Of a stretch of 64,000 nucleotides of DNA, positions 5,009 through 23,483 are shown in pieces (the stretch's first letter is position 1; each line of letters begins with the position of its first letter). Under the pieces are notes generated by a model that had not been told where the DNA came from, ran no database searches, and was given only the letters and a program-made list of their open reading frames with translations. Source of the stretch: Micropruina sp. (lineage in GTDB: Bacteria > Actinomycetota > Actinomycetes > Propionibacteriales > Propionibacteriaceae); assembly GCF_047606665.1 (NCBI RefSeq), contig NZ_JASGEF010000047.1:34172-98171 (forward strand), in the 5' to 3' direction. A program made the translations under genes and the position numbers.

Positions 5009-5689
5009 ATGAGCCGCATCCACGACCTTCTCGACGAGCTGGGGATCACGATCGATCCCCAGCTTTTCGGGCTTGCCCTGGTGCATCGGAGCTTCTCCTA
5101 CGAGAACGGCGCGATCCCGCACAACGAGCGGCTGGAGTTCCTGGGCGACGCCGTCCTCGGCGTGGTGATCACCGAGCACCTGTATCTGCGCTTCCCTGAC
5201 CTTCCCGAGGGACGCCTGGCGAAGCTGCGCGCAGCCGTCGTCAACGCGCATGCCCTGGCCGACGTCGCCCGCGGCCTCGAGCTGGGATCGCTGATCCGGC
5301 TCGGCAAGGGTGAACTCGCCACCGGCGGTGCTGACAAGTCGTCCATCCTCGCCGACGCCTTCGAGGCGGTGCTGGGCGCCCTGTTCCTCTCCGCCGGACG
5401 GGACGCCGCCGACGCCTTCGTGCACACCCTGTTCGACCCGCTGGTCGAATCGGCCAACAGCCTCGGCGCCGGCCTGGACTGGAAGACCAGCCTCCAGGAG
5501 CTCTGCTCGCTGCGCGACCTGGGCGCCCCGGCCTATCTCATCACCGAGTCCGGACCCGACCACGACAAGCGGTTTCAGGCCGTCGCCGTGATCGGTGACA
5601 GCAGCTACCCGTCCGCGCCGGGCCGCTCCAAGAAGCAGGCCGAACAGGGCGCGGCCAAGGCGGCCTTCGAGTCCCTGCACGATGCCTGA
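5009..5689 (+). CDS. rnc: Ribonuclease III
   Basis: ATG at 5009 within ORF 4799..5689. RNase III signature [12 protein letters not shown], plus a C-terminal dsRBD ([31 protein letters not shown]). Confidence 0.95.
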
Positions 5690-6560
5690 GCTGCCCGAGG
5701 TCGAGACCGTCCGGGCCGGGTTGGCGTCCATCGTCGCCGGACGCCGCATCGATACGGTGACCGTGCTGCACCCGCGTCCGGTACGCCGGCATCCGGGTGG
5801 CCCGGACGACTTCGCCGCCACCCTCGCCGGCCGAACCTTCGCCGAGCCCCGGCGTCGCGGCAAGTACCTGTGGCTGCCGTTCGCCGACGGCGACGCGCTG
5901 CTGGCGCACCTCGGGATGAGCGGACAGTTCCGGCTGGACGTCCCCGGCGCGCCGCTGCTGCCCAACACGCGAGTGCTGTTCGACCTGGTGGACGACGCAG
6001 CCCCCTCCTCGTCATCCCGGCGAACGCCGGGATCTCCCAGCCAGCTCCGCTTCATCGACCAGCGGATGTTCGGCGGCCTGTCGCTCAGTTCGGGCGGCGC
6101 CGAACTGCCCGCCGAACTCGCCCACATCGGACGCGACCCGTTCGATCCCGCCTTCGACCTGGCCGCCGCGGTGCGGAAGATCCGCGGCAAGCGCAGCGCC
6201 GTCAAGCGGGTGCTGCTCGACCAGACGGTGGTCTCCGGCATCGGCAACATCTACGCAGACGAGGCGCTGTGGCGGGCCCGGCTGCACTACGACCGTCCGG
6301 CCGATACCCTCACCGCCGCGAAGGCACGGGAACTGCTCGGCCACGCCCGCGACGTGATGGCCGAGGCACTCGAGCAGGGCGGCACCTCGTTCGACGCCCT
6401 CTACGTGAACGTCAACGGCAGCTCCGGGTACTTCGAGCGGGCACTGGCTGCCTACGGACGCGAGGGCCTGCCCTGCCAGCGCTGTGGACGTCCGATCAAA
6501 CGCGAGCCGTTCATGAACCGATCCTCGTTCCGCTGCCCGTCCTGCCAGCGAAAACGATGA
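5682..6560 (+). CDS. mutM: Formamidopyrimidine-DNA glycosylase (Fpg/MutM)
   Basis: [15 protein letters not shown]-terminus (ATG 5682, 8-nt overlap with rnc). H2TH region and C-terminal zinc finger CQRCG..CPSCQ are present. Confidence 0.95.
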
Positions 6561-6626: not shown

Positions 6627-6982
6627 ATGTGGAGCGTGGACGTCGGGCTGATCGAGGACTGGCTCAACTCGCTCGACAGGGCGTCGTGGAAGCAGGTGAT
6701 GGCGGCCATTGAGGTGCTTCGTGAGTTCGGTCCGCAGTTGGGCCGTCCGCTCGTGGACTCGTTGACCGCGTCCAGGCACCGGAACATGAAGGAGCTCAGG
6801 CCGGGATCGTCGGGCCGCAGCGAACTCAGGGTCCTGTTCGCCTTCGACCCGAGCGCCGGGCGATCATGCTGGTGGCCGGCGACAAGGCCGGGAACTGGAC
6901 GCGGTGGTACAAGAAGAACCTCCCGGTGGCCGACGACCTGTTCGACGACCACCTACACAGACTGAGGACCGGCAGAGACTGA
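6627..6982 (+). pseudogene. HigB/RelE-superfamily (Gp49/DUF891-like) toxin, frameshifted
   Basis: ORF 6627.. reads ..KELRPGSSGRSELRVLFAFDPS and then nonsense. Shifting frame near 6848-6860 gives RRAIMLVAGDKAGNWTRWYKKNLPVADDLFDDHLHRL, ending at TGA 6980-6982. That is the expected family C-terminus. Confidence 0.7.
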
Positions 6983-6989
6983 GAGGAGA

Positions 6990-7313
6990 GTGATCGAGAT
7001 GGCACTGAGCTACGAGGAGTACCTGGCCAAGCACCCCGTCGACGCCGCGGACCGGGCGGAGATCGACGCACACAAGGAGCGGATGCTCGCCGAGGTGCGG
7101 GCCTACCGCCTTCGCGAGCTGCGCGAGCAGGCCGGCCTCACCCAGGCGCAGTTGGCCGAGCGCATCGGCGTCGGGCAGCGGCAAGTCTCGAAGATCGAGC
7201 GTGGAGATCTCGACAGCGCCAAGGTTGGCACGATCCGCAGGTATCTTGAGGCCGTCGGCGGTGGCCTTGCCGTCGAGTACGTGATGGGCGACGAGCGCAT
7301 CCAGGTCGGCTGA
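6990..7313 (+). CDS. XRE-family HTH antitoxin (HigA-like)
   Basis: HTH core LRELREQAGLTQAQLAERIGVGQRQVSKIERGD. It lies directly downstream of the HigB-like remnant. ATG 6999 is an alternative start with better spacing from GAGGAG. Confidence 0.8.
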   Translation: MIEMALSYEEYLAKHPVDAADRAEIDAHKERMLAEVRAYRLRELREQAGLTQAQLAERIGVGQRQVSKIERGDLDSAKVGTIRRYLEAVGGGLAVEYVMGDERIQVG

Positions 7314-7404: not shown

Positions 7405-7655
7405 GTGGGTACGACCATCACCAGCCGCGACTTCAACCGTGACGTCTCCGCGGCCAAGCGTGCCGCCGAGCAGGGGCCGGTCACGATCACCGATCACGGC
7501 CGCCCCTCGCGCGTTCTGCTGACCGCGGCGGAGTTCGACCGGCTCTCCGGCAACCAGGAGTTGATGGGGAACCCTCTCTGGAGGAGCCAGGATCCGAGCA
7601 TCGACCTGCTCTGCCGGAGCGCCGTGTCGAGCCTGAGCGCGAGATGGACCTGTGA
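7405..7655 (+). pseudogene. Phd/VapB-type antitoxin with a C-terminal frameshift
   Basis: (M)GTTITSRDFNRDVSAAKRAAEQGPVTITDHGRPSRVLLTAAEFDRL is a typical antitoxin N-terminus. The expected C-terminus LPERRVEPEREMDL* (TGA 7653-7655, GTGA overlap with the vapC start) lies in another frame from about nt 7612. Confidence 0.65.
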
Positions 7656-7880
7656 GGTACCTGCTCGACACGAACGTTCTCAGCGATGCGCGCAGGCAGG
7701 CTCGACCGGAGCTCAACGTCTGGCTGCCGGTCAGCCGGGAGCAGACCTCGCGATCAGTGTCATCACGCTCCTGGAGATCGAACGGGCGTCCTGCTGACGC
7801 ACGAACTCACCGTCGTCACCCGCAATGTGAAGGACTTCCAGCGCACTGGCGTGGATGTGATCGACTCCTGGGAGTTGTGA
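7652..7880 (+). pseudogene. vapC: VapC (PIN domain) toxin remnant: two frame changes and an internal deletion of roughly 60 aa
   Basis: Three frames give MRYLLDTNVLSDARRQARPELNVWL / AAGQPGADLAISVITLLEIER / VLLTHELTVVTRNVKDFQRTGVDVIDSWEL*. Total length is only 229 nt, against about 400 nt for an intact PIN toxin. Confidence 0.7.
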
Positions 7881-8093: not shown

Positions 8094-9659
8094 ATGGCAC
8101 CGACCACCAAAGAGGCCCAGCGCGCCGAGCTGCACAAGACGATCTGGCGGATCGCGAACGACCTGCGCGGCAGCGTCGACGGGTGGGACTTCAAGACCTA
8201 CGTGCTCGGCACCCTGTTCTACCGGTTCATCTCGGAGAACCTCACCTCCTACGTCAACCGGGGCGAGCACGAGGCGGGCAACCTCGAGTTCGACTATCCG
8301 CTCTTGTCCAACCGAGAGGCCGAGGTGGCTCGCACGGAACTGGTGGCGGAGAAGGGCTTCTTCATCTACCCGTCCGAGTTGTTCCAGAACGTGCGTGAGC
8401 GAGCGCCGCGGGACGCGAATCTCAACGAGACGCTGGAGCGGGTCTTCAACAACATCGAGGCATCGGCGGTCGGCACGGACAGCGAGGACGATCTGAAGGG
8501 CCTGTTCGACGACCTCGACGTCAACAGTTCCAAGCTCGGCAACACGGTCGCCAGGCGCAACGAGAAGCTCGTGAAGCTGCTGGATGCGATCGGCGATCTG
8601 CCGCTGGGAGACTTCGAAGACAACGCGATCGACCTGTTCGGTGACGCCTACGAATACCTGATGCAGATGTACGCCTCACAGGCAGGTAAGTCCGGCGGCG
8701 AGTACTACACACCTCAGGAAGTCTCCGAGGTGCTCGCGAAGATCACCGTTGTCGGCAAGACCCGGGTGAATAAGGTCTATGACCCAGCCGCCGGATCGGG
8801 GTCGCTGCTGCTGAAGTTTGCGAAGGTGCTCGGACGCGACAACGTGGGCGGCTTCTTTGGGCAGGAGATCAACCTGACCACCTACAACCTCGCCCGCATC
8901 AACATGTTCCTGCACGACGTGAACTACGAGAAGTTCAACATCGCGCACGGCGACACGCTCACCGATCCGCAGCACTGGGACGACGAGCCGTTCGAGGCGA
9001 TCGTCTCCAACCCGCCTTACTCGATCAAATGGGAGGGTGACGCGAACCCGCTGCTGATCAACGACGAGCGTTACGCACCGGCTGGTGTGCTGGCGCCGAA
9101 GTCGAAGGCCGACCTGGCCTTCACGATGCACATCCTCTCGTGGCTGGCCGTGAACGGTACGGCCGCGATCGTCGAGTTCCCCGGCGTGCTGTACCGGGGC
9201 GGCGCGGAGCGGAAGATCCGCCAGTACCTGATCGACAACAACTACGTGGACGCCGTGATCCAGCTGCCCCCGGATCTGTTCTTCGGCACGACGATCGCGA
9301 CCTGCATCATCGTGCTGAAGAAGTCGAAGACCGACAACGCGGTGCTGTTCATCGACGCCTCGGCCGAGTTCACCCGGGTCGGCAACAAGAACAAGCTGCT
9401 GCCCCGGCACCAGCAGCACATCCTCGACACGTTCACCACGCGGGAGGACGTCGACCACGTCGCCACGCTCGTGCCGAACGAGGACATCGCCGCGAACGAC
9501 TACAACATCGCCGTGTCCTCTTATGTCGTACGGGAGGACACCCGCGAGGTGATCGACATCCGAGCGCTGAACGCCGAGATCGCGCGCATCGTCGCCCGCC
9601 AAGCCGAGTTGCGCACCTCGATCGACGCGATCGTGGCCGACCTTGAGGGCACCGCGTAG
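8094..9659 (+). CDS. hsdM: Type I restriction-modification system, DNA methyltransferase subunit M
   Basis: 521 aa. HsdM N-terminal domain ([36 protein letters not shown]), SAM motif [13 protein letters not shown], and catalytic NPPYSIKW (N6-adenine MTase). Confidence 0.95.
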
Positions 9660-9687
9660 TGTCGGCGGGCGTGAGTAGGGTGCGGCT

Positions 9688-10275
9688 ATGAGTGAGGGCG
9701 AACAGTCGGACGAGCGCCGGGCGCTCGTTCGATCGTCGGCGGCGGAGTACCTGACCTTCGTTGCCGCCACGGGCGACGGCGGTGGTGCGGTCGAGCTGCG
9801 CTACGAGGACGAGAACATCTGGCTGACTCAGAAGCTGATGGCTGAGCTGTATGGAGTCTCGGTCCAGATGGTAAGTAAGCACCTCCAGACGCTGTTCGAG
9901 AGTGGCGAGCTGCAGCCGGAGTCAGTTATCAAGCGATACTTGATAACTGCCGCCGACGGGAAGAACTACAACACGCAGCACTGCAGCCAGTTCTTGAACC
10001 GCCTCGTCTCGATGTACCTCGACTTCGCAGAGTTCCAGGCGATGCGCAAGGTCCCCATGTCGATTCAGGACTTGGCCGCCCGGCTCGACGGCTTCCTCGA
10101 GTTCAATGGCACCGAGATCCTGGTCGGCCCCGGCAGAGTCTCAGCGGAGCAGGCAAAGCTGCACGCCGAAACAGAATTCGAGCGGCACCGGACCGTCCAA
10201 GATCGGCTGTTCAGTAGTGACTTCGACCGCTTCCTCGAAGCTTCGGACGTGAGTGACAAGGAGACGGCGCAATGA
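9688..10275 (+). CDS. RhuM-family-like protein, short form (195 aa)
   Basis: The N-terminal part (VELRYEDENIWLTQKLMAELYGVSVQMVSKHLQTLFESGELQPESVIKRYLITAADGKNYNTQH) and C-terminal part (NRLVSMYLDFAEFQAMRKVPMSIQDLAARLDGFLEFNGTEIL) match my recollection of the two ends of ~330-aa RhuM proteins. The central region is absent. Confidence 0.6.
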   Translation: MSEGEQSDERRALVRSSAAEYLTFVAATGDGGGAVELRYEDENIWLTQKLMAELYGVSVQMVSKHLQTLFESGELQPESVIKRYLITAADGKNYNTQHCSQFLNRLVSMYLDFAEFQAMRKVPMSIQDLAARLDGFLEFNGTEILVGPGRVSAEQAKLHAETEFERHRTVQDRLFSSDFDRFLEASDVSDKETAQ

Positions 10276-11519
10276 GTCGCATCGACGAACTGACCGCCGA
10301 GTTGTGCCCGAATGGTGTCGATTTCAGAACATTGGCCTCCGTTGGACGGTGGTACGGAGGGGGGACGCCATCTAAAGGCAAGGTCGAGTATTGGGAGAAT
10401 GGAACAATTCCGTGGGTGTCTCCGAAGGACATGGGGAGGCGGGTTGTTGATTCAGCTATCGATTCCATCACTGAAGCTGCAGTGCATGGATCGGCGACGA
10501 AGCTAGTGCCGCCAGGGTCAGTTGCGATGGTCGTTAGGTCGAGTATTCTTGACCACACTTTCCCCACTGCGCTCGTGCCCGTTGCTGTCGCTTTAAATCA
10601 GGACATGAAGGCTATTGTGCCATTTGGCGGAGTCCTCCCTGGTTATCTAGCGCATCTGCTGAACTCGCGTGGACAGGATATTCTGCGAGTCGCTAGAAAG
10701 ACCGGCGGATCCGTTGCTTCTATCGAGACCTCCAAGCTCTTCAATTTCCGAATCCCCGTGCCGCCGCTCGAGGTGCAGCGAGAAATCGTGAGAGTGCTGG
10801 ATCAGTTCACTCAGTTGGAGACGGAGCTGGCGGCGGAGTTGAAGGCGGAGCTGGAGGCGCGACGCCAGCAGTATTTCTACTACCGAGACCAACTGTTGTC
10901 CTTCCGCGAGACAGGAGGGGTCCGGTGGATTCCGATTGGTGAGGTCGGAACGATCTTCCGGGGCAAGAGATTCACGAAGGATGATTACGTCGTCGAGGGT
11001 GGCATCGGCGTCATCCACTATGGGGAGATTTATACAGAATATGGCGTATCGGCGTCTCGCGTGAAATCGAGGGTGCGCAGTGAGATGGGCCCTTCGCTGC
11101 GGTACGCAACGAAAGGCGACGTTGTGCTGACCGACGTTGGCGAGACGGTGGTTGACGTCGGTAAGGCTGTTGCGTGGCTTGGTGAGGAGGACGTAGCCAT
11201 CCACGACCACTGCTATGTGATCCGGTCTGATGTTGACGCTACTTACCTTGCGTATGTAATGCAGACAAGTGCATTCACCAGAGAGAAAGGAAAGCACATC
11301 GCGCGAACGAAGGTGAAGACGTTGTTGCTCAACGGGCTGAAGCGGATCGTCGTCCCCGTCCCGCCGCTGGAAGAACAGCGTCGGATCGTCGCGATCCTCG
11401 ACAAGTTCGACGCCCTCGTCAACGACCTGAGTGTGGGTCTTCCTGCCGAACTCAACGCGCGCCGAAAGCAGTACGAGTACTACCGCGACAAGCTGCTGAC
11501 TTTCCGCGAGGCGGCATGA
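10272..11519 (+). CDS. hsdS: Type I restriction-modification system, specificity subunit S
   Basis: 415 aa with two target-recognition halves. Each ends in a conserved coiled-coil repeat (LEVQREIVRVLDQFTQLETELAAELKAELEARRQQYFYYRDQLLSF and LEEQRRIVAILDKFDALVNDLSVGLPAELNARRKQYEYYRDKLLTF). GC looks lower than the surroundings by eye. ATGA overlap with the preceding ORF. Confidence 0.93.
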   Translation: MSRIDELTAELCPNGVDFRTLASVGRWYGGGTPSKGKVEYWENGTIPWVSPKDMGRRVVDSAIDSITEAAVHGSATKLVPPGSVAMVVRSSILDHTFPTALVPVAVALNQDMKAIVPFGGVLPGYLAHLLNSRGQDILRVARKTGGSVASIETSKLFNFRIPVPPLEVQREIVRVLDQFTQLETELAAELKAELEARRQQYFYYRDQLLSFRETGGVRWIPIGEVGTIFRGKRFTKDDYVVEGGIGVIHYGEIYTEYGVSASRVKSRVRSEMGPSLRYATKGDVVLTDVGETVVDVGKAVAWLGEEDVAIHDHCYVIRSDVDATYLAYVMQTSAFTREKGKHIARTKVKTLLLNGLKRIVVPVPPLEEQRRIVAILDKFDALVNDLSVGLPAELNARRKQYEYYRDKLLTFREAA

Positions 11520-12532
11520 TCCCTGCCTTCTTCATCCCGAACCCGCAGTGGCGCGAGCAGATCGACGCGATCGTCGAACTGGTCGGGCGCATCGGCGTCT
11601 TGGAGCAGCTCTCTGCGGGTGTGTTGGAACTGCGGCGGCGCAACCGGGTGCTGGCGGTGAGCAGTTCGACGGCGATCGAAGGCAACACGCTGTCGCTCGC
11701 GCAGGTGGAGGCGATCGCGAAAGGTGAACCTGTCTTCGCGGCGCCGCGTGAGGTGCTGGAGAACCAGAACGCGCTCGCGGCGTACGCCGCCCTCGACGAC
11801 CTGGATCCGTGGAGCGTGCCCGACCTGCTGCGCGCGCACGCCATCCTCACCGGTGGGCTCGTAACCGAGTCCGGAGCCTTCCGCACAGTTGGTGTGGACA
11901 TTGTGAACCCGAAGGGTGAGGTGCTGCACAGCGGCTCGCGCCCAGCGAAGGTGCCCCGCCTGGTGGCGGAGCTGTTGGATTGGGGCCGGACGTCGAACCA
12001 TCACCCGCTCGTGGTGTCCAGCGCCGTCCACTACCTGATCGAGCACATCCATCCCTTCCGTGACGGCAACGGACGCATCGGTCGACTCTGGCAGACGCTG
12101 ATCCTCAGCAGATGGCGACCGCTGTTCGCGTCGGTGCCGGTCGAATCGCTGATCCGCGACAACCAAGCCGGGTACTACCTGGCCCTCCAGGCGTCCCACG
12201 AGCCCGAGATCGACGCTGCGCCGTTCATCGACTACATGCTCGCCATCATCACGCAGACGCTCACCGAGTACGAGCGCCAGGTCCAACGAAGCACGTCGCC
12301 TGACGAGGTAAATGACGAGGCAAGTGACGACCTAAACCAGCGTCTGCTCGCGGTGCTGCGCCAGCACCCGCAGTGGAGCGCGGAGCGGATCGGCCGGCAC
12401 CTGGGTGTGAGCACGCGCACGGTGCAGCGTCACCGCAACCAGCTTCGCGACGCAGGCCGCGTCCGGCACGTCGGCCCGGCGAAGACGGGCCACTGGGAGG
12501 TGATCGATGCAGATCGAGCAGGAGAGCAATGA
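11516..12532 (+). CDS. Fic/DOC family protein with C-terminal winged-HTH
   Basis: Fic motif HPFRDGNGRIGRLW. N-terminal inhibitory-helix-type motif STAIEGN, i.e. (S/T)xxxE(G/N). C-terminal HTH-like segment RIGRHLGVSTRTVQRHRNQLRDAGRVRHVG. ATGA overlap with the hsdS stop. Confidence 0.9.
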   Translation: MIPAFFIPNPQWREQIDAIVELVGRIGVLEQLSAGVLELRRRNRVLAVSSSTAIEGNTLSLAQVEAIAKGEPVFAAPREVLENQNALAAYAALDDLDPWSVPDLLRAHAILTGGLVTESGAFRTVGVDIVNPKGEVLHSGSRPAKVPRLVAELLDWGRTSNHHPLVVSSAVHYLIEHIHPFRDGNGRIGRLWQTLILSRWRPLFASVPVESLIRDNQAGYYLALQASHEPEIDAAPFIDYMLAIITQTLTEYERQVQRSTSPDEVNDEASDDLNQRLLAVLRQHPQWSAERIGRHLGVSTRTVQRHRNQLRDAGRVRHVGPAKTGHWEVIDADRAGEQ

Positions 12533-12622
12533 CTGTCGAGCAGGAGATGCAAGCGACTGCCGCTCACGGGCTGAGTCTGTGACCGGCTGGCTGATGTGCG
12601 AGGGTGCCTCTCGACGCTGCCG

Positions 12623-12648
12623 TAGCATCAGGTAGATCTCTCATCTAC
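12623..12648 (+). promoter_or_regulatory. Candidate internal promoter/operator for phd-vapC-hsdR
   Basis: -10-like TAGCAT (12623-12628) is followed by the inverted repeat GTAGAT-CTCTC-ATCTAC (12632-12648), 10 nt before the phd ATG. It lies in the only sizeable gap (125 nt) of the operon. Confidence 0.4.
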
Positions 12649-12657
12649 TCTTGGGCC

Positions 12658-12912
12658 ATGAACGCCATTTCGGTCGCCGAACTGCGACAGAACCCCACTG
12701 AAGCGCTGGCGCGCGCCGAGGCCGGCGAGACTGTCATCATCACCCGTCACCGTCACCCCATCGCCAAGATCGTCCCGCTGGACGCGCCGGGCGTCGCCCT
12801 CATCCCCGCGCGTAAGCGGGGGCGGGCCAACCTCGATGAGCTGCTTGGTCCCCCACGGCGAACCCACGACGAAGTCGAAGCGTTGCTGGCCGAGATGAAA
12901 GAGGATCGGTGA
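12658..12912 (+). CDS. Phd/YefM-type antitoxin
   Basis: MNAISVAELRQNPTEALARAEAGETVIITRHRHPIAKIVPL, a typical Phd/YefM N-terminal fold sequence. 84 aa. Its stop overlaps the vapC GTG (GTGA). Confidence 0.85.
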   Translation: MNAISVAELRQNPTEALARAEAGETVIITRHRHPIAKIVPLDAPGVALIPARKRGRANLDELLGPPRRTHDEVEALLAEMKEDR

Positions 12913-13310
12913 ATCGCTACTACCTCGACAGTTCGGTGGCGGCGCACGCGATCCTCGCCGGTGGTCACGCACGGGAGTGGCTAGCCGGTGTCACGGGTGA
13001 CGACGGTGCGGAACTGATGTCCTCGCGACTACTGCAGACCGAACTCACTCGCACGCTCCGCCGGGAGGGGATCCCCGTCGCCGAGCGGGGCGCGGTTCTC
13101 GACTACGTCGCCCTGATCCCGATCACCGAGTCGATCCTGGCCGCCGCCGAGGCGATCACCGAACACACCAAGACACTCGACGCCATCCATCTCGCCAGCG
13201 CGCTGGCCATGGGAGGAGACCTCGAACTCGCCACCCACGACATGAACATGCGTCGCCTCGCAGAACTGCTGGGGCTGCGAGTCATCGACCCGGTTGCTGG
13301 AACGTCGTGA
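12909..13310 (+). CDS. vapC: VapC (PIN domain) ribonuclease toxin
   Basis: 133 aa. N-terminal YYLDSSV (first acidic PIN residue), DAIHLASAL and a THD segment. Paired with the upstream Phd-type antitoxin. Confidence 0.85.
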   Translation: MNRYYLDSSVAAHAILAGGHAREWLAGVTGDDGAELMSSRLLQTELTRTLRREGIPVAERGAVLDYVALIPITESILAAAEAITEHTKTLDAIHLASALAMGGDLELATHDMNMRRLAELLGLRVIDPVAGTS

Positions 13311-16300
13311 CCGACGTACCTGCCCGTCGCTACGACCCGATCGCGGTGTCCGCGGAAAGCACCGTCGTGGCCGAGTACGTCCCCGAGGCGGTGGCAGAGG
13401 CCGCCTACCAGTCGGAGGCCGGGCTGGAGCGGGAGTTCATCCGACTACTGCAGTCGCAGGCGTACGAGTACCTGCCGATCACGTCCGAGGAGCAGCTGGT
13501 CGCGAACCTCCGCAACCAGCTGGAAGCGCTGAACCAGATCACCTTCTCCGACTCGGAGTGGCGGGACTTCTTCGAGAACACGATTGCCGGCAAGAACGAC
13601 GGCATCGCCGAGAAGACCGTACGCATCCAAGAGGATCACGTTCAGCTTCTCAAGCGCGACGACGGTTCGACGAAGAACATCACACTGCTGGACAAGCAGA
13701 ACATCCACAACAACCGGCTGCAGGTGATCAACCAGTACACCAACGAAGGCCGAGTGCAGTCGGACGGAGTCCGAACTGCTGAGGCCGAGGCAGGTGTCGA
13801 CGAGCGTAGCGAGGAACATGAGGTCGACCGAGCCGACCCGGCCGACGAGGGCAGTGCGAGCGGGCGCTACGGGAACCGCTACGACGTGACGGTGCTGGTG
13901 AACGGTCTGCCGATGGTGCACATCGAACTCAAGCGGCGCGGTGTGGACATCCGTGAGGCGTTCAACCAGATCGACCGCTACCAGCGCGACAGCTTCTGGG
14001 CGGGCTCCGGTCTGTTCGAGTACGTGCAGCTGTTCGTCATCAGCAACGGCACGCTGACGAAGTACTACTCGAACACGACCCGCAGCCAGCACCTCAAGGA
14101 AGGTCAGGTGTCGGCACGCTCAGCCAGTGGTCGCAACCGCAAGACGTCGAACAGCTTCGAGTTCACGTCGTGGTGGGCGGACGCGCAGAACAGGCCGATC
14201 CAAGACCTGACCTCGTTCGCGAGGACGTTCTTCGCCAAGCATGCGCTGCTGAACATCCTGACCCGCTATTGCGTGCTCACCGCCGACCGGATGCTGCTGG
14301 TGATGCGGCCGTACCAGATCGTGGCGACGGAGCGGATTCTGCAGCGCATCGAGATCGCCACCAACTACAAGCGTCTCGGTACGATCGCCGCCGGCGGCTA
14401 CGTGTGGCATACCACCGGTTCGGGCAAGACCCTCACCAGCTTCAAGACCGCACAGCTTGCGTCGGCGTTGCCGAGTGTGGACAAGGTGCTGTTCGTCGTG
14501 GACCGCAAGGATCTCGACTACCAGACGATGCGCGAGTACGACCGCTTCCAGAAGGGCGCGGCCAACTCCAACACCTCCACGGCTGTGCTGAAGCGTCAGC
14601 TGGAAGACCCCGCCGCGCGGATCATCATCACCACGATCCAGAAGCTATCGATGTTCATCAAGGCGAACAAAGGGCATATGGTCTACGACCATCATGTGGT
14701 GATCATCTTCGACGAGTGTCACCGCTCGCAGTTCGGTGACATGCACACCGACATCACCCGCTCGTTCAAGCGGTACAACCTGTTCGGCTTCACCGGGACG
14801 CCGATCTTCGCCGCCAACAGCGGCAGCGGTGGCAACCCGCAGTTCAAGACCACCGAGCAGGCGTTCGGAGAGAAGCTGCACACCTACACGATCGTGGACG
14901 CGATCACCGACAAGAACGTGCTGCCCTTCCGCATCGACTACGTGAACACCGTCAAAGTCGGCACCGTCACCGACAAGCAGGTCTCCGCGATCGACGCGGA
15001 GAAAGCTCTCCTGGACCCGAAGCGGATCGGCGAGATCGTCAAGTACACGCTGGAGCACTTCGACCAGAAGACCAAGCGGGCCTCCAGCTACGAGCACTCC
15101 GTCGTCACCAACGTCGCCGAGGCTGCGCGCACGCGACGCCAGGAGGCCGTGCGCCAGCGCAAGCGGGTGCGCGGGTTCAACGCGATCTTCGCGACCGCCT
15201 CGATCGATGCCGCGCGCCGGTACTACAACCACTTCCACGTCCAGCAGCGCGAACTGCCACCGGACAAGCGGCTGAAGATCGGTCTCATCTACTCCTACGG
15301 CGCGAACGACGCCACCGATGACGGCATCCTCGACGACGAGGCCTTCGACACCGACGCCCTGTCGATAGATGCTCGCGGCTTCCTGGAGGATGCGATCCAG
15401 GACTACAACGACCTGTTCGGCACGAGCTACGACACCAGCGCGGAACGGTTCCAGAACTACTACAAAGATCTCTCGCAGCGACTGAAGAACCGCGAACTCG
15501 ACCTGGTGATCGTGGTCAACATGTTTCTCACCGGCTTCGACGCCACCACGCTGAACACCCTGTTCGTTGACAAGAACCTGCGCGCCCACGGCCTGATTCA
15601 GGCCTACTCGCGGACGAACCGCATCCTCAACTCCGTGAAGACCTACGGCAACATCGTCGCGTTCCGCGACCTCGAGGACGAGACCAACGCCGCGCTGGAA
15701 CTCTTCGGCAACAAGGACGCCCGCGGCGTCGTCCTACTGAAACCCTACGGCGACTACTACGGCGAGTACGCCGAGAAGGTACAGGAGTTGCTGAGCAGGT
15801 TCCCGCTCGGGCAGCCGATCATCGGGGAGCGCGCGCAGAAGGAGTTCATCCAGCTGTTCGGCGCGATCCTGCGGCTGGAGAACATCCTCACCTCCTTCGA
15901 CGACTTCGCCGGCAACGAGATCCTCACCGAACGCCAGGGGCAGGACTACCGCAGCGTCTACCTCGACCTGTACGCGGAGTTCCGCAAGGACAGAACCGCC
16001 GAGAAGGAGTTCATCAACGACGACGTGGTCTTCGAGATCGAACTCATCAAGCAGGTCGAGATCAACGTCGACTACATCCTGATGCTCGTCGCCAAGTACC
16101 GGGAGCAGTTCGGCGACGGCCAGGACAAGGAGATCCGCTCCGAGATCAGCCGCGCCGTCGACGCGAGCCCGACCCTGCGCAACAAGAAGGACCTCATCGA
16201 AGCGTTCGTGGATTCTGTTTCGGTCGACGGTGCGATCGACGAGGAATGGCAGGCGTTCATCGCAGCCAAACGAGAAGCGGAGCTGACGGCGATCATCGAG

Positions 16301-16519
16301 GAGGAGAACCTTCGCGCCGAGGAGACCCGCGCGTTCGTCGAGACCGCGTTCCGAGACGGCGCACTCCGTGCCACCGGAACTGCGATCACGAAAGTACTCC
16401 CGCCCACCTCCCGCTTCGCGGCCGGCGGAAGCCACGGCGAGAAGAAGCAGCGCGTGATCCAGAAGCTCGGCGCGTTTTTCGACCGGTTCTTCGGACTCGG
16501 TGCGGCAGGAGCTGGCTAG
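13307..16519 (+). CDS. hsdR: Type I restriction enzyme, endonuclease/translocase subunit R (EcoR124I-like)
   Basis: 1070 aa. Nuclease core NRYDVTVLVNGLPMVHIELKRRG, helicase motif I TTGSGKTLTSF, DEAH-type FDECHRSQ, motif VI QAYSRTNR. The GTG start overlaps the vapC TGA (13307-13310). Confidence 0.95.
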   Translation: MTDVPARRYDPIAVSAESTVVAEYVPEAVAEAAYQSEAGLEREFIRLLQSQAYEYLPITSEEQLVANLRNQLEALNQITFSDSEWRDFFENTIAGKNDGIAEKTVRIQEDHVQLLKRDDGSTKNITLLDKQNIHNNRLQVINQYTNEGRVQSDGVRTAEAEAGVDERSEEHEVDRADPADEGSASGRYGNRYDVTVLVNGLPMVHIELKRRGVDIREAFNQIDRYQRDSFWAGSGLFEYVQLFVISNGTLTKYYSNTTRSQHLKEGQVSARSASGRNRKTSNSFEFTSWWADAQNRPIQDLTSFARTFFAKHALLNILTRYCVLTADRMLLVMRPYQIVATERILQRIEIATNYKRLGTIAAGGYVWHTTGSGKTLTSFKTAQLASALPSVDKVLFVVDRKDLDYQTMREYDRFQKGAANSNTSTAVLKRQLEDPAARIIITTIQKLSMFIKANKGHMVYDHHVVIIFDECHRSQFGDMHTDITRSFKRYNLFGFTGTPIFAANSGSGGNPQFKTTEQAFGEKLHTYTIVDAITDKNVLPFRIDYVNTVKVGTVTDKQVSAIDAEKALLDPKRIGEIVKYTLEHFDQKTKRASSYEHSVVTNVAEAARTRRQEAVRQRKRVRGFNAIFATASIDAARRYYNHFHVQQRELPPDKRLKIGLIYSYGANDATDDGILDDEAFDTDALSIDARGFLEDAIQDYNDLFGTSYDTSAERFQNYYKDLSQRLKNRELDLVIVVNMFLTGFDATTLNTLFVDKNLRAHGLIQAYSRTNRILNSVKTYGNIVAFRDLEDETNAALELFGNKDARGVVLLKPYGDYYGEYAEKVQELLSRFPLGQPIIGERAQKEFIQLFGAILRLENILTSFDDFAGNEILTERQGQDYRSVYLDLYAEFRKDRTAEKEFINDDVVFEIELIKQVEINVDYILMLVAKYREQFGDGQDKEIRSEISRAVDASPTLRNKKDLIEAFVDSVSVDGAIDEEWQAFIAAKREAELTAIIEEENLRAEETRAFVETAFRDGALRATGTAITKVLPPTSRFAAGGSHGEKKQRVIQKLGAFFDRFFGLGAAGAG

Positions 16520-16579: not shown

Positions 16580-16695
16580 CAGCTGACTGATGCTGGGCTC
16601 TCGTCTTCCGTCTCTCGCACCACCCCGACAGGAATGTCGGTGGTCGCAGCCACGTCGTTGTGGGGCTCGCGGCGGCCCGTCGGTACTCTGGGCGC

Positions 16696-17025
16696 ATGTC
16701 GAGCAACGCCGTGACGCCTGAGACGCTCGCTCTGCGCGGGCTTATTGACGCGCACCACGACGAGTTCCACGCGCTCCTGGCCAAGTACTCGGCGACGAAG
16801 CCGAAGCTGTTCGGCTCGGTCGCCCGTGGTGCCGCGCATGAGGGCAGTGACATCGACATCCTCGTCGAGATGGATCCCGCGGACGGGAATCTGCTGATGC
16901 GGGCATCGGGACTCATGGAAGAGACCAGAGAGTTGTTCGGCCGCGACGACATCGACGTGTTTCCGGTGCAGCTGCTCAAACAGCCTATCTCGCAGTCGGC
17001 GATCGAGGACGCGGTCGCACTGTGA
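16696..17025 (+). CDS. Nucleotidyltransferase-domain antitoxin (MntA-like)
   Basis: LFGSVARGAAHEGSDIDILVEM (GSxxRG..SDxDxLV minimal NTase motif). ATG 16696 lies inside ORF 16660..17025. Overlaps the HEPN gene start. Confidence 0.85.
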   Translation: MSSNAVTPETLALRGLIDAHHDEFHALLAKYSATKPKLFGSVARGAAHEGSDIDILVEMDPADGNLLMRASGLMEETRELFGRDDIDVFPVQLLKQPISQSAIEDAVAL

Positions 17026-17687
17026 TCCGCAGCACCGACAGGAGGATCGCCGACATCCTGCAGGCGATCGAGCGATGCCAGAGGTATGTTGGCGCGCTCA
17101 GCGACGATGGCGAAGCAAATCTCGTCGATATGGCTGAGGACGCTATTGAGCGGAATCTCCAGGTCATCGGCGAGGCAGCGAACTATTTGCCGGCGGAGCT
17201 CACCGAAGCGTGTCCGGAGATCCCGTGGCCGCAGATCCGAGGCTTCCGAAACATCCTGGTCCACCAGTACTTCGGAGTCGATTCCAACATCGTCCGTGAC
17301 GTCGTCGAAACGCATCTACCGCCACTCGCGGAGGCGCTGCGCCAACGTGCTGGGGGAGATTCGGGGCGGCACCCCCTAACTAATGTGGGCGAGTCGTCAT
17401 CGGTCGTACACATCGGGGCGATGACCAAGGGTGACGACCACGACGAGCAACCTGCCGTCTTCGACGGTGTAGATGATCCGGTAGTCGTCGACGCGGATCC
17501 GCAGGGCGTCACGCCTGCGCAGGGCTTTCGCTCCCGGTGGCCGAGGGCCGACTGTGAGCAAGGCGATCGCTCCCCGGATCCGGGCATGGTCCTGGCGGTC
17601 GATCCTCTTCAACGCCCGCAGGGCGGCGGAGCGCACCTCGATCTCGTAGACCATGCTCCTGGGTTCACCAACCCAGGTCAGCTTTGA
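17022..17687 (+). CDS. HEPN/DUF86 (HepT-like) toxin; the literal ORF reads through about 100 codons beyond the conserved domain
   Basis: Rx4HxY motif RGFRNILVHQY. The conserved domain ends near nt 17360. TAA codons at 17377 and 17381 lie in the two other frames, directly after a C5 run. The in-frame stop is only at 17687, antisense to the convergent relE gene. Confidence 0.75.
   Translation: MIRSTDRRIADILQAIERCQRYVGALSDDGEANLVDMAEDAIERNLQVIGEAANYLPAELTEACPEIPWPQIRGFRNILVHQYFGVDSNIVRDVVETHLPPLAEALRQRAGGDSGRHPLTNVGESSSVVHIGAMTKGDDHDEQPAVFDGVDDPVVVDADPQGVTPAQGFRSRWPRADCEQGDRSPDPGMVLAVDPLQRPQGGGAHLDLVDHAPGFTNPGQL
17397..17654 (-). CDS. RelE/ParE family toxin
   Basis: MVYEIEVRSAALRALKRIDRQDHARIRGAIALL..ALRIRVDDYRIIYTVEDGRLLVVVVTLGHRPDVY. 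Internal ATG of ORF 17397..17759. Confidence 0.85.
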   Translation of the reverse strand: MVYEIEVRSAALRALKRIDRQDHARIRGAIALLTVGPRPPGAKALRRRDALRIRVDDYRIIYTVEDGRLLVVVVTLGHRPDVYDR

Positions 17688-17910
17688 CCTGCGCCCAGGG
17701 GATGTTCGGGCCCTCCTCGGCCATCGCGGCGTCGAACGCGGCGACGTCCTCGACCTCATCGGCGGCCTCTCGGAGCCGTCCGTACTCCGCGGGGGAGAGG
17801 ATCACGGCCTGGGGCTCGCCGCGGCGCTCGACGATCACGGCCTCGCGCTGGGCGGTCTCGATGACGGCGGCAAAGCTCTTACGTACCTCGGAAACGGTGA
17901 TGGTCGACAT
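17665..17910 (-). CDS. Phd/YefM family antitoxin
   Basis: MSTITVSEVRKSFAAVIETAQREAVIVERRGEPQAVILSPAEYGRL. It lies 10 nt upstream of the RelE/ParE gene. Confidence 0.85.
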   Translation of the reverse strand: MSTITVSEVRKSFAAVIETAQREAVIVERRGEPQAVILSPAEYGRLREAADEVEDVAAFDAAMAEEGPNIPWAQVKADLGW

Positions 17911-18061
17911 CGCTCGATTGTACAAGAATGAGACTAAAAGGTACGTTTCGGCACTGCCCGGCGGCCCATGCCGTCGCCAGCCGGCCGTCACGCCGCAGGT
18001 CCGTCCTGGGTCGCGGCCGGCTTGGGCTAACGAACTGTCCGTCGAAATCAGGGTTCACTAG

Positions 18062-18601
18062 GTGCTTCGCGAACTCGACTCGGCGGACGCGGGAGACCTC
18101 TTCGTGTTCCGCAGCGACGACGATGCGCAGCGCTACAACGATGCGCCGTTGCGGGAGCCCGCCGAGGCTATGGCGTTGATCGAGCGGGTGCGGGCGGAAT
18201 TCGCTGCCGGCGAGGGCGTCTACTGGGCTTTGGCGGTGCCCGACGACCCCCGCGCGATCGGCCTGTTCGGGCTTGGCGGTTGGGATCGGTACCACCGCCG
18301 AGCCGAGATCGGCTACAACGTGCACCGCGATCACTGGGGCCAAGGGCTCGCCACCGAGGCGGTCCGCGGCATCCTGGAGTTCGCATTCACCACGATGAAC
18401 CTCAATCGCATCGAGGCGCTGATCATCGCCGACAACCATCCGTCGGTCCGGCTTGTCGAGCGCGTCGGATTCGTCCGCGAAGGCACGAGGCGAGCGTGCT
18501 CGTGGGAAGAAGACGGCGTCTTCCATGACAGTGCGATCTACGGTCTGCTCCAGCGTGAATACCAGGCGACCGGCGTCCGACCCAGCCCACGTCGAGCGTG
18601 A
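18062..18601 (+). CDS. GNAT family N-acetyltransferase (RimJ/RimL-like)
   Basis: 179 aa. RAEIGYNVHRDHWGQGLATEAVRGILEFAF..LNRIEALIIADNHPSVRLVERVGFVREG matches the acetyl-CoA-binding GNAT core. Confidence 0.85.
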   Translation: MLRELDSADAGDLFVFRSDDDAQRYNDAPLREPAEAMALIERVRAEFAAGEGVYWALAVPDDPRAIGLFGLGGWDRYHRRAEIGYNVHRDHWGQGLATEAVRGILEFAFTTMNLNRIEALIIADNHPSVRLVERVGFVREGTRRACSWEEDGVFHDSAIYGLLQREYQATGVRPSPRRA

Positions 18602-18628
18602 CTTGAGAAGGTCGCCTGAATCGCCCGC

Positions 18629-18656
18629 ATGTATGCATTGTCTACAATGCATACAT
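18629..18656. promoter_or_regulatory. 28-bp AT-rich palindromic operator candidate overlapping the copG-type antitoxin start
   Basis: ATGTATGCATTGT-CT-ACAATGCATACAT has 13-nt perfect arms. The start codon ATG (18655-18657) lies within the right arm. Confidence 0.6.
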
Positions 18657-18942
18657 GAGCTCCACGGCACCGCTTGGACGACCCATCTCGGTCCGCCTTC
18701 CGGAGGATCTTCGCAGGCGCATCGAAGCACTGGCACGCGCCACCCGGCGTAGCCAGGGCGACGTCGTCCGCGAGGTGCTTGAGCGCGACTTGGCGAGGCT
18801 GGAGTGGGAGCAGCGAATCGCCGCTCGTGCGGCAGATCTGCGTGCGGGCCGGGTGCAGGCCGTACCCCTCGACGAAGTCGAGCGTGAACTGGGCCTGGAC
18901 GGAGTCGTTATCGACCCGCGCATCGTGGATGACATCGAGTGA
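18655..18942 (+). CDS. Ribbon-helix-helix (CopG/RelB-like) antitoxin
   Basis: RPISVRLPEDLRRRIEALARATRRSQGDVVREVLERDL is an RHH signature. The stop overlaps the toxin GTG. Confidence 0.8.
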   Translation: MSSTAPLGRPISVRLPEDLRRRIEALARATRRSQGDVVREVLERDLARLEWEQRIAARAADLRAGRVQAVPLDEVERELGLDGVVIDPRIVDDIE

Positions 18943-19202
18943 GTTGGCAGGTGGCTCTGTCGCCCGAGGCGGCGAAGTGGCTTCGCAAGGCCGATCCGCA
19001 GGTCGCACGACGCATTCGCGACGCGCTCCGCGTGGTGGCGGCGCTGGACGACCCGCGCAGCAGGGGCAAAGGCCTCACCGCGGGATTGGCCGGCCTATGG
19101 AGGTATCGGGTCGGCGACTATCGCGTGATCTGCGACATCCGGGATCGCGAACTGGTGATCCTTGCCCTCGACGTGGGCAAGCGCGACGAGATCTACGGAT
19201 AG
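18939..19202 (+). CDS. RelE/ParE family toxin
   Basis: 87 aa. ..GLWRYRVGDYRVICDIRDRELVILALDVGKRDEIY is a typical RelE/ParE C-terminus. Confidence 0.85.
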   Translation: MSWQVALSPEAAKWLRKADPQVARRIRDALRVVAALDDPRSRGKGLTAGLAGLWRYRVGDYRVICDIRDRELVILALDVGKRDEIYG

Positions 19203-19357: not shown

Positions 19358-19924
19358 GTGACATCTGCCGGCTCGTTCCTCCGCCGCTACGCCCACGTCG
19401 GCCGGCAGTTTCTGAAGTTCGGCGCCGTGGGCGGCGCCGGGGTCGTGGTCAACATGCTGGTGGCCATCGTCATGAACAAGGCCAACGGCGGCACCGTCAA
19501 CGCCCAGAACATCCTGTTCAGCATTCCCGGCACGCCGTTCAACTTCCGCTTCACGATCTTGGTCTGGATCGTCGGCTTCCTGGTGGCGAACCTGTTCAAC
19601 TTCCAGTTGAACCGGCACTGGACGTTCCGGCACGGGCAGAAGGCCCCCTGGATGAAGGAGTTCCTGCCGTTCCTGGCGGTCGGCAGCGCGGCCGCACTGG
19701 TCGGCATCTTCATCAAGATCGGCTTCACCAACCCGACCTCGCCGCTCTATCTGCCCGAGCCGTGGTTCCACGAGAACGCCGGACTGCAATCCCGCGAGTA
19801 CTGGGCGCAACTGCTCACCATCGTGATCACCACGCCGATCAACTTCCTGGTCAACAAGCTGTGGACGTTCCGGCACGTCCGCCGGCGGCACGCCGAGACC
19901 GAGACCCCCACCGCCGTCCGGTAG
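19358..19924 (+). CDS. GtrA-family membrane protein
   Basis: Four hydrophobic segments. Repeated NFQLNRHWTFRH and NFLVNKLWTFRH motifs are typical of GtrA-like proteins. Confidence 0.8.
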   Translation: MTSAGSFLRRYAHVGRQFLKFGAVGGAGVVVNMLVAIVMNKANGGTVNAQNILFSIPGTPFNFRFTILVWIVGFLVANLFNFQLNRHWTFRHGQKAPWMKEFLPFLAVGSAAALVGIFIKIGFTNPTSPLYLPEPWFHENAGLQSREYWAQLLTIVITTPINFLVNKLWTFRHVRRRHAETETPTAVR

Positions 19925-19928
19925 GCCC

Positions 19929-22900: not shown

Positions 22901-23483
22901 CCCGCTGGCCCTGGAGGAGTTCGACGCGCTGCAGGAACGGCACGCCTTCCTCGCCGAGCAACTGGACGACCTGCGCAAGACCCGCGCCGACCTGAGCGAG
23001 ATCATCGAGCAGGTCGACGCACGAGTGCAGGAGGTGTTCGCCGCCGCCTACGCCGACGTCGAAAAGGCCTTCGAGCACTCCTTCGCGCGGCTCTTCCCCG
23101 GTGGCGAGGGACGCCTGGTGCTGACCGAGCCGGGGGAGTGGCTGACCACCGGCGTGGACGTCGAGGCGCGTCCGGCCGGCAAGAAGGTGAAGCGGCTGTC
23201 GCTGCTCTCCGGTGGTGAACGCTCGCTGGTCGCGGTCGCGTTCCTGGTCGCGCTGTTCAAGGCCCGGCCCAGCCCCTTCTACATCCTCGACGAGGTCGAG
23301 GCCGCCCTGGACGATGTCAACCTCGGCCGGCTGCTGGAGATCTACGAGGAACTGCGCGAGAACTCGCAGCTGCTGGTGATCACCCACCAGAAACGCACCA
23401 TGGAGATCGCCGACGCCCTGTACGGCGTCACGATGCGCTCCGACGGTGTCTCCGCGGTGATCAGCCAGCGGCTCCGCGACTGA
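19929..23483 (+). CDS. smc: Chromosome segregation protein SMC
   Basis: 1184 aa. N-terminal Walker A GPNGSGKSN, long Ala/Glu/Arg coiled coils, a hinge, C-terminal signature LSGGERSLVAVAFL and Walker B FYILDEVEAALD. Confidence 0.97.
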   Translation: MHLKSLTLRGFKSFASTTTLAFEPGITCVVGPNGSGKSNVVDALSWVMGEQGAKSLRGGKMEDVIFAGTSGRAPLGRAEVTLTIDNTDGALPIEYTEVTISRTMFRSGGSEYRINGSTARLLDVQELLSDSGIGREMHVIVGQGQLDSILQATPEIRRGFIEEAAGVLKHRKRKEKALRKLEATGTNLNRLTDLLAEIRRQLKPLGRQAEVARKAAVIQAELRDAKARLIADDYIMATLALQSDLAVEADLKARRASVEAALDAARAAETDAEAAAREALPRLNAAQETWYGLAGLRERLASTMTIAGERVRNAENAGDGDRPGRDPELIEREAAEMRKAEEALNVEVAQAAQALTDATAALKQTEAAHEQAERSYAAHLRAIADRREGLARLTGEVNTLRSRTEAAGAEIERLSSARDDALARASAATRSFAALETRIAGVSDGESGLDAAYESAAAEVERIEAGLADVRRAEAKAQTERATLAARLDALALGLERKDASAALLAAGDAVGGLLGSVATLIGVEPGCEVAISAALGSAADAVAVAGLDAAVGAFGHLKAEDLGRAGLLLGGSAHPDADCWPTLPGGARWAIDAVTCTDQVRPALARLLLKVAVVDDLPAARALVADLPDVTAVTRDGDVLSQWFAAGGSSAKPSLIEVQAAVDETESRLAGVQADLERARFALAQHEAELAQARERAEAALARLHESDAEHAALAEELATLSQTTRAAQAEAERLAASIAAAQATREQNRTALAALEQRLELASAQTEVTEADPSERDRLSVLERAARGAEMEARLALRTIEERARALAGRADSLTRAAAAERQARARAAARREQLRREAADARAVSEAAIWLLGRVEASQELAAAERSAAEAARLAAENTLTEARRRGRELAKEFEDLVAHVHRDELARAEQRLRVEALAERALVELGLDADVLVAEYGPDQLIPVLTRADGSALGPDERPEPVPFVRAEQEKRLRTAERNLGVLGKVNPLALEEFDALQERHAFLAEQLDDLRKTRADLSEIIEQVDARVQEVFAAAYADVEKAFEHSFARLFPGGEGRLVLTEPGEWLTTGVDVEARPAGKKVKRLSLLSGGERSLVAVAFLVALFKARPSPFYILDEVEAALDDVNLGRLLEIYEELRENSQLLVITHQKRTMEIADALYGVTMRSDGVSAVISQRLRD

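Follow-up and report, generated by a model that had tools for sequence, protein, structure and literature searches.

Does a Type I restriction-modification (R-M) operon that carries four passenger genes between its own genes represent a single composite defence machine, or an ordinary R-M operon in which separate cassettes have come to rest? The question is raised by a seven-gene locus at positions 8094–16519 of a 64,000-nucleotide (nt) stretch of DNA from Micropruina sp.; the whole of this stretch is termed the window. The genes hsdM, hsdS and hsdR are found here together with a rhuM-like gene, a fic gene and a phd-vapC toxin-antitoxin (TA) pair. An earlier interpretation made from the letters alone, here termed the sequence-only reading, viewed the passengers as effectors wired into a composite restriction/abortive-infection system. 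The locus belongs to a known class, that of defence genes embedded in Type I R-M operons, and it is probably a normal operon of this type with self-contained defence or toxin cassettes that have accreted in the two usual slots. Slot 1 (between hsdM and hsdS) would hold an inactivated RhuM; slot 2 (between hsdS and hsdR) would hold an auto-inhibited Fic, and Phd-VapC with its own promoter/operator.

The seven genes are consecutive and have the same orientation. Open reading frames (ORFs) were called by a simple method, and their coordinates (Table 1) match exactly those of the sequence-only reading, as do the gaps and the 4-nt overlaps, all of which can be read directly from the sequence. The rhuM/hsdS and hsdS/fic junctions are ATGA overlaps (positions 10272–10275 and 11516–11519), and the phd/vapC and vapC/hsdR junctions are GTGA overlaps (12909–12912 and 13307–13310). 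The gap between hsdM and rhuM is 28 nt (9660–9687) and that between fic and phd is 125 nt (12533–12657). The longest phd ORF opens at a GTG at 12604; its homologues are all 84 amino acids (aa) long, consistent with a start at the ATG at 12658. All four passenger genes are thus enclosed by hsdM and hsdR and, like these, are on the + strand, which is the arrangement of embedded cassettes (Payne et al. 2024). Long antisense ORFs in the region gave no family matches and are therefore treated as spurious, and an Rfam scan of the region gave no families. No terminator-like sites were seen on the + strand within the operon, in a scan of the E. coli type that is uninformative for a high-GC actinobacterium. 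Because the genes share a strand and have coupled stop and start codons, with no terminator-like sites seen, all seven are probably co-transcribed.

Family identities are taken from Pfam, NCBIfam and PADLOC profile scans. These back the gene identities given in the sequence-only reading, with rhuM present as an internally deleted form. HsdM matches TIGR00497 (719 bits), N6_Mtase (4.9e-110) and HsdM_N, and its methyltransferase motifs are intact (DPAAGSG at residue 230, NPPY at 306). HsdS has two Methylase_S stretches, i.e. two target-recognition domains (TRDs), and matches the PADLOC model Specificity_I over residues 1–411 of 415 (2.1e-99). HsdR matches TIGR00348 (539 bits), HSDR_N, SWI2_SNF2, a T1R_D3-like domain (2.4e-58) and EcoR124_C (1.6e-75). 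It displays intact nuclease and helicase motifs, with PD-(D/E)xK and superfamily 2 signatures: D193...E207-x-K209, GSGKT at 371, DECH at 469 and QAYSRTNR (QxxSRxxR) at 765. The three subunits of a Type I enzyme are thus present with their motifs, and the combination of EcoR124_C and T1R domain 3 in HsdR is, by domain content, that of Type IC (EcoR124-like) enzymes. Judged in this way, hsdM, hsdS and hsdR of this Micropruina-like actinobacterium form an EcoR124-like Type I R-M operon that is intact.

Related operons display how the hsd genes are joined in the absence and in the presence of passengers. The comparison anchored on HsdR comprises 80 metagenome loci among the matches listed, with HsdR 67%–85% identical to that of the window; its counts are of loci and not of independent lineages, as some are near-duplicates. 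The default operon in these relatives is hsdM-hsdS-hsdR with a 4-nt overlap at each junction. Slot 1 is empty in 36 of the 60 evaluable loci, contains RhuM in 12 and another gene in the other 12. Slot 2 is empty in 50 of the 73 evaluable loci (an exact 4-nt overlap is found in 42/73) and is otherwise filled by phd-vapC (4/73), by fic without a TA (2/73) or by other genes (17/73). Other occupants of the slots include PrrC, an Mrr-type IV restriction endonuclease, PD-Lambda-3_A, PDC-S14 (DUF4357), PDC-M05A/B, PDC-S02 (YhcG) and PDC-S01. In nearly all loci hsdR opens with (A/G)TG-A, and the preceding gene, of whatever kind, ends in an overlapping TGA. On this comparison both hsd junctions are recurrent insertion slots for interchangeable known or candidate defence cassettes.

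Since the default bare operon has the same 4-nt overlaps, these are generic and do not represent special wiring. A stoichiometric coupling of effectors to the M, S and R subunits, as proposed in the sequence-only reading, is thus not upheld: overlaps join bare hsd genes and every type of cassette equally, and a composite machine deduced from the overlaps was rejected on the same grounds. The expectation in that reading that the architecture should recur is borne out, by the 12 loci with hsdM-rhuM-hsdS, by hsdS-fic-hsdR in several phyla and by phd-vapC-hsdR in five lineages. The neighbourhood check that it proposed also shows that the locus is not unique to one strain, as the seven-gene order is present in a second Micropruina genome.

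This second genome, a metagenome-assembled genome (MAG) of Micropruina sp. (contig L035), is syntenic with the window and has the seven genes at the same chromosomal site. The identity is 98% for hsdM, 95% for hsdR, 98% for Phd and 88% for VapC, and 53% for HsdS, in which TRD1 is replaced. The hsdS segment encoding TRD1 (10327–10751 of the window, compared with L035:8899–9239) cannot be aligned, and the remainder of hsdS is about 77% identical. The specificity therefore appears to have been swapped, and a different recognition sequence is predicted.

The two genomes show reciprocal lesions. In L035, rhuM is full length and fic has lost 298 nt and is a frameshifted pseudogene; the window shows the reverse, with fic intact and rhuM shortened by 474 nt. 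Thus one passenger is dead in each genome, and the hsd genes and the TA pair are intact in both. By this comparison the passengers are dispensable. The ratio of nonsynonymous to synonymous substitution (dN/dS) between window and L035 is 0.08 for hsdM and 0.11 for hsdR. Synonymous divergence varies along the operon: 0.13 in hsdM, 0.24 in hsdR, 0.63 in phd/vapC, 0.51 in the N-terminal part of rhuM and about 1.5 in hsdS. This mosaic points to segmental exchange and a recombinant history within the operon.

Table 1. Features of the seven-gene operon, followed by those of its flanks (positions are those of the window).
Feature	Position	Strand	Basis or remark
hsdM, N6-adenine methyltransferase subunit, 521 aa	8094..9659	+	profile matches, motifs
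RhuM/PDC-S05 remnant, 195 aa	9688..10275	+	partial profile matches, alignment with homologues
hsdS, specificity subunit, 415 aa, two target-recognition domains	10272..11519	+	Methylase_S, Specificity_I
fic, class II Fic AMPylase-type, C-terminal winged helix-turn-helix, 338 aa, SoFic-like	11516..12532	+	profiles, motifs
promoter/operator-like element of phd-vapC	12623..12652	+	repeats, conservation; putative function
phd, Phd/YefM-family antitoxin, 84 aa	12658..12912	+	PhdYeFM_antitox, TIGR01552
vapC, PIN-domain toxin, 133 aa	12909..13310	+	PIN profile, invariant acidic residues
hsdR, restriction subunit, 1070 aa, EcoR124-like domain set	13307..16519	+	TIGR00348, EcoR124_C, motifs
HigB/Gp49-like toxin gene	6627..6965		absent from L035
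HTH_3 antitoxin-like gene, following the HigB/Gp49-like gene	6990..7313		absent from L035
second Phd/YefM-type ORF with broken PIN-like tail in another frame	7405..7880		absent from L035
MNT gene	16660..17025		between hsdR and gtrA-smc; absent from L035
HepT gene	17022..17687		between hsdR and gtrA-smc; absent from L035
GNAT acetyltransferase gene	18062..18601		between hsdR and gtrA-smc; absent from L035
RHH-ParE pair	18655..19202		between hsdR and gtrA-smc; absent from L035

The occupant of slot 1 is a remnant. It matches the PDC-S05 profile at positions 3–95 and 239–336 only, and the Pfam RhuM profile at positions 168–248 of 252 only; a complete Virulence_RhuM domain (a core of about 250 aa) is not present. 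Alignment with four full-length homologues shows that about 158 central residues are absent, among them the blocks that are most conserved in the family. The N-terminal part, which resembles a helix-turn-helix (HTH), and the C-terminal part are kept, and the deletion is in frame: 123 nt in the window correspond to 597 nt in L035, so that 474 nt net have been lost. The L035 protein is full length (7.9e-106 over positions 1–249). The remnant is most likely inactive, given the loss of its core.

Further in-frame deletions of the RhuM core are found in L096 and in L115/L125. These short forms belong to another subfamily (~31% identity) and have different endpoints; hence their deletions are considered independent, and the possibility that the window protein is a conserved short isoform was rejected. 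As rhuM is translationally coupled between hsdM and hsdS, an in-frame deletion would be a tolerated route of inactivation, and the remnant probably stayed in frame since translation of hsdS is coupled to it. The RhuM core may be costly to the cell, which fits the published prediction that it is a toxin (PMC3710099).

It should be noted that L125 has a second RhuM-type gene (L125:2563–3495) beside its core-deleted copy. This gene carries a Doc-type motif (HPLADGNKR) at its C-terminal end and thus represents a RhuM-Doc fusion, a type to which Anantharaman et al. (2013) refer.

The first gene in slot 2, fic, is intact. The protein matches the Fic (6e-18) and HTH_11 (1.1e-6) profiles, the PADLOC SoFic model (4.6e-43) and PDC-S04. 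The Fic motif HxFx(D/E)GNGRxxR is present as HPFRDGNGRIGR at residue 179 and is invariant in 20 homologues. The class II inhibitory motif (S/T)xxxE(G/N) is present as STAIEG at positions 51–56, with S51, E55 and G56 invariant. The closest solved structure is 4rgl (6e-63), FICD and SoFic being more distant; the SoFic structures PDB 3eqx and 3zcn are matched at only about 1e-6. The score with the NCBIfam model ProtAdlyltaseSoFic is 41 bits, against a cut-off of 550, and lies below the level of a SoFic equivalog. The motifs are those of an intact, auto-inhibited class II protein of SoFic-like type, and this would be expected to be an abortive-infection AMPylase (a candidate role).

Anti-phage activity has been reported for SoFic-type Fic proteins (PMC12249575). 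The window Fic shares with this single-gene defence the N-terminal inhibitory motif, the canonical Fic motif, a C-terminal domain and the PADLOC match. It differs in its distance from SoFic proper, and there is no space downstream for a small ORF of the AS1 type.

Relatives of this Fic are mostly found away from hsd genes. A comparison anchored on Fic comprises 80 genome loci from many phyla among the matches listed, of which 63 can be evaluated upstream and 59 downstream. The upstream neighbour is HsdS in 5/63, HsdR in 1/63 and RhuM in 1/63, and the downstream neighbour is HsdR in 4/59. Type I genes are thus the commonest immediate neighbours, yet a minority; the others are unrelated genes, many of them housekeeping genes.

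The second cassette in slot 2 is a type II TA pair, with a small phd gene directly upstream of and overlapping vapC, whose product has the conserved acidic PIN residues. Phd matches PhdYeFM_antitox (3e-10) and TIGR01552. VapC matches PIN (1.2e-10) and has a 100% identical counterpart annotated in a MAG of Micropruina sp. Among 12 homologues, E45, D91, D111 and D127 are invariant and D7 nearly so. Both genes are under strong purifying selection, with dN/dS values of 0.02 (phd) and 0.12 (vapC) relative to L035.

The cassette is preceded by a conserved element. This consists of TAGCAT (12623–12628), an inverted repeat GTAGAT-N5-ATCTAC (12632–12648) and a TANNNT-type hexamer, TACTCT (12647–12652), which ends 6 nt before the phd ATG. 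The 37 nt that precede the ATG are conserved in L035, and the sequence immediately 5′ of them cannot be aligned. The layout TAGAY-N5-TAGAY-N5-RTCTAC with TACNNT, at a fixed distance from the ATG, is found in eight lineages with 45%–98% identity in Phd, including stand-alone cassettes. A scan with the E. coli sigma-70 model, which is uninformative for a high-GC actinobacterium, gave no promoters. In actinobacteria, a TANNNT −10 hexamer at 6–7 nt before the start site is common, as are leaderless TA transcripts. The conserved layout, taken together with these general features, suggests that phd-vapC probably has a putative promoter/operator that is leaderless and autorepressed.

The association of this cassette with hsdR is recurrent and the alleles are exchangeable. 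Ten relatives were looked up in a comparison anchored on VapC: two are embedded, with an EcoR124-type hsdR immediately downstream, and eight are stand-alone. Overall, phd-vapC is found directly 5′ of hsdR in five lineages (window/L035, L081–L083, L091/L092, L111 and L086–L088/L149). The relationships of TA and HsdR are incongruent. L091 has the HsdR closest to that of the window (86%), and its VapC and Phd are 58% and 54% identical; the VapC of the stand-alone locus L084 is 71% identical to the window VapC. For the TA embedded in L086, the nearest counterpart is a stand-alone TA in L171, which is at the same hotspot without hsd genes. In a neighbour-joining tree of HsdR without bootstrap values, TA-bearing loci are found at several positions, beside bare sisters. 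Vertical co-inheritance with hsdR as the sole explanation was therefore rejected. The incongruence shows the TA cassette to be autonomous and exchangeable, yet recurrent at the same position; TA alleles are, by these identities, swapped independently of HsdR.

Two loci show unusual rearrangements. At the hotspot between infC-rpmI-rplT and MFS-DUF445, L171 has phd-vapC alone and L086 has hsdM-hsdS-phd-vapC-hsdR. The flanks are 94%–99% identical and the TA only 80%, so that L171 was rejected as a simple deletion derivative of L086. In L081 (L081:6408–7060, also in L082 and L083), vapC is followed by the first 22 codons of hsdR and then by an insertion of ~590 nt with a VapB_antitoxin-like ORF, after which hsdR resumes at about codon 8. 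The 5′ end of hsdR is thus duplicated around the insertion.

The position of the TA raises the possibility that Phd-VapC serves hsdR. It would supply a second transcription input that responds to antitoxin turnover, and the toxin would penalise loss of the hsdR-proximal segment. The operator/−10 layout is conserved directly upstream of phd, and the stop codon of vapC overlaps the start of hsdR in all embedded lineages but one, i.e. in four out of five, the fifth being L081 with its insertion between vapC and most of hsdR. In a bare operon, moreover, hsdR has no space for a promoter of its own because of the 4-nt overlap with hsdS. In Mycobacterium tuberculosis, deletion of vapC21 alters transcript levels of the adjacent hsdS.1 and hsdM (PMC7517352). 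The persistence of the TA in L171 at a hotspot without hsd genes has also been counted in favour of this interpretation. However, 50 of the 73 related operons are without any insert and this TA is present in only four, the same TA family is mostly stand-alone, and early production of HsdR from an unrepressed TA promoter, upon entry into a new host, would seem a disadvantage when the system is becoming established. A service of the TA to hsdR is therefore regarded as rather unlikely, and we hold the same doubt about a cassette retained mainly as a regulatory or stabilising element and not as an independent phage defence. It is similarly doubtful that Phd-VapC is a dedicated partner of this HsdR family, with HsdR output following antitoxin turnover. 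If it were, phage shut-off or protease activation would derepress the cassette and give a burst of HsdR with free VapC, and selection for the control circuit would explain why different TA alleles have been captured here time and again.

Several observations weigh against the accretion of self-contained cassettes. The gene order hsdS-fic-hsdR recurs across phyla, and the combination of fic and phd-vapC recurs in L111 (hsdS-fic-phd-vapC-hsdR). The TA is the cassette nearest hsdR in all five embedded lineages, including those where it shares the slot (L091/L092, L111 and the window). PrrC, whose activity a Type I enzyme is known to restrain, occupies the hsdS-hsdR slot in the sister operons L122 and L146. 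Such recurrence could reflect a functional link beyond co-location. In addition, the retained parts of RhuM still show a low dN/dS relative to L035 (0.07–0.18), and a residual role is thus possible, e.g. DNA binding by the N-terminal HTH; these values are not decisive, as the comparison includes a lineage with an intact rhuM.

The release of a toxin upon R-M inhibition, as envisaged in the sequence-only reading, would amount to an integrated guard, in which HsdMS(R) would sense phage anti-restriction proteins and free or activate Fic and/or VapC, leading to abortive infection. The sharing of the slot with PrrC, the adjacency of Fic to hsdS or hsdR in several phyla and the repeated location of phd-vapC directly 5′ of hsdR speak for a guard. 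There are precedents for effectors caged by R-M enzymes in PrrC and Ronin (bioRxiv 10.1101/2023.04.06.535777), and a multilevel defence by R-M, Fic/Doc and RhuM has been proposed (PMC3710099). On the other hand, most relatives of Fic and VapC show no linkage to hsd genes; for PrrC, in contrast, an almost exclusive embedding has been reported (bioRxiv 10.1101/2024.01.29.577857). Both toxins have inhibitors of their own, the alpha-inh motif in Fic and Phd for VapC, and hence would need no masking by HsdMS. The passengers decay reciprocally and the hsd genes stay intact, and TA alleles are exchanged independently of HsdR. The near-exclusive linkage to hsd genes and the silencing by an Hsd complex in place of an own inhibitor, which characterize R-M-caged effectors, are thus not seen in the sequence, and a guard appears improbable.

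Under the preferred reading, that of accreted cassettes, each component would act by itself. The R-M enzyme would cut unmodified DNA. Fic would modify a host or phage protein after displacement of its inhibitory helix, and VapC would cleave RNA upon depletion of Phd. hsdR would gain additional transcription from the TA promoter. A layered defence would thus arise only via co-location and co-expression, with no physical complex between the R-M enzyme and the toxins.

The genomic setting raises a further possibility. The operon is in a stretch of lower GC content (0.58–0.66, compared with ~0.70) between mutM (5595–6560) and gtrA-smc (19358–23483). It is surrounded by TA-type modules (Table 1) and thus lies within a dense TA islet. 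The 2.8-kb stretch between hsdR and gtrA-smc (16660–19202) is missing from L035. Just upstream of hsdM, the Phd/YefM-type ORF and the broken PIN-like tail (ending in ...VVTRNVKDFQRTGVDVIDSWEL and a stop codon) look like a degraded phd-vapC pair, unrelated in sequence to the embedded pair. An origin of the embedded phd-vapC as a duplicate of this remnant was rejected, as there is no significant similarity.

In such surroundings the passengers might be selfish or decaying cargo without current benefit, accumulated at a permissive recombination hotspot and heading for loss. The five further TA-type modules around the operon that are absent from L035, the degraded pair among them, would fit this, as would the deletion of the RhuM core in the window, L096, L115 and L125 and the fic pseudogene in L035. 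Yet the motifs of the window fic are all kept, strong purifying selection acts on phd and vapC, the genes that fill the slots in relatives are for the most part recognised defence genes, and the anti-phage activity reported for SoFic-type proteins (PMC12249575) also speaks against mere cargo. We consider this explanation very improbable.

The claims of the sequence-only reading on function can now be placed. Of the three potential effectors it named, Fic and VapC have intact motifs; RhuM is without its 158-aa core, and fic is itself a pseudogene in L035. A dependence of the effectors on the R-M enzyme is not supported, since Fic and VapC have inhibitors of their own and relatives that are mostly outside hsd loci. 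That genes embedded in hsd loci can act as a second line of defence agrees with published precedents. The statement that the combination was not known as a described system fits the literature searched with regard to the exact stack of three cassettes, and does not apply to the kind of arrangement, which has been published. In the literature searched, neither the exact three-cassette stack nor a Phd-VapC family recurrently coupled to hsdR was found described.

A description of R-M operons that contain Fic/Doc and RhuM-like toxins, interpreted as a multilevel defence, dates from 2013 (Anantharaman et al., PMC3710099). The window has RhuM-like and Fic-family genes inside an R-M operon as in that work, and a RhuM-Doc fusion occurs in L125. 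It differs in that it has no PrrC/HEPN partner and that the RhuM core is deleted; the role of an RNA-targeting arm falls to a PIN toxin that comes with its cognate antitoxin. A systematic survey has covered embedding in Type I R-M, BREX and DISARM systems, and the PDC models derive from it (Payne et al. 2024, bioRxiv 10.1101/2024.01.29.577857). The passengers of the window are likewise flanked by hsd genes and share their orientation, RhuM corresponding to PDC-S05 and Fic to SoFic with PDC-S04, and other PDC or known systems are found in the same slots of sister operons. A difference from that survey is the three-cassette stack; PADLOC also has no Phd-VapC model.

Four other loci may be compared. 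In enteropathogenic E. coli, DarTG2 is located between hsdS and hsdR, a site suggested to be a recombination hotspot (PMC12255303). That locus is also a seven-ORF island with a TA pair in the hsdS-hsdR slot; the TA of the window differs in being Phd-VapC, has no RptR-type regulator upstream, brings a putative operator of its own and has its translation coupled to that of hsdR. In Vibrio cholerae VPI-2, the Type I system has TgvAB embedded in it (PMC11411939). EcoprrI holds PrrC in check, and the Ronin HsdMS does likewise with RonA (bioRxiv 10.1101/2023.04.06.535777); here, too, the effector gene is inside or next to the hsd genes, and PrrC shares the slot in the L122 and L146 operons, but Fic and VapC have their own inhibitors and occur mostly away from hsd genes. 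In M. tuberculosis, vapBC21 and vapBC42 by hsdS.1/hsdM are VapBC-type TA modules inside an actinobacterial Type I hsd locus, and they affect neighbouring hsd transcripts (PMC7517352). That locus differs in having no functional HsdR (PMC7591249), a VapB in place of Phd and another operon position.

The locus is a well-resolved example of how Type I R-M operons serve as landing pads on which defence and toxin cassettes are interchanged, with some ten types of cassette distributed over two slots within a single HsdR clade, and with junctions rebuilt as 4-nt stop/start overlaps. Three leads follow from it. Phd-VapC with its conserved operator is found repeatedly 5′ of hsdR and may add a TA-controlled promoter to hsdR. 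The RhuM core has been deleted in frame more than once, which is consistent with a costly toxin domain at a site of translational coupling. A clade of SoFic-like Fic proteins has Type I R-M genes as its most frequent neighbour. Current understanding is not overturned by this locus; the catalogue of embedded defence genes is extended, and a natural system is provided for the question of whether embedding reflects co-regulation or mechanistic coupling.

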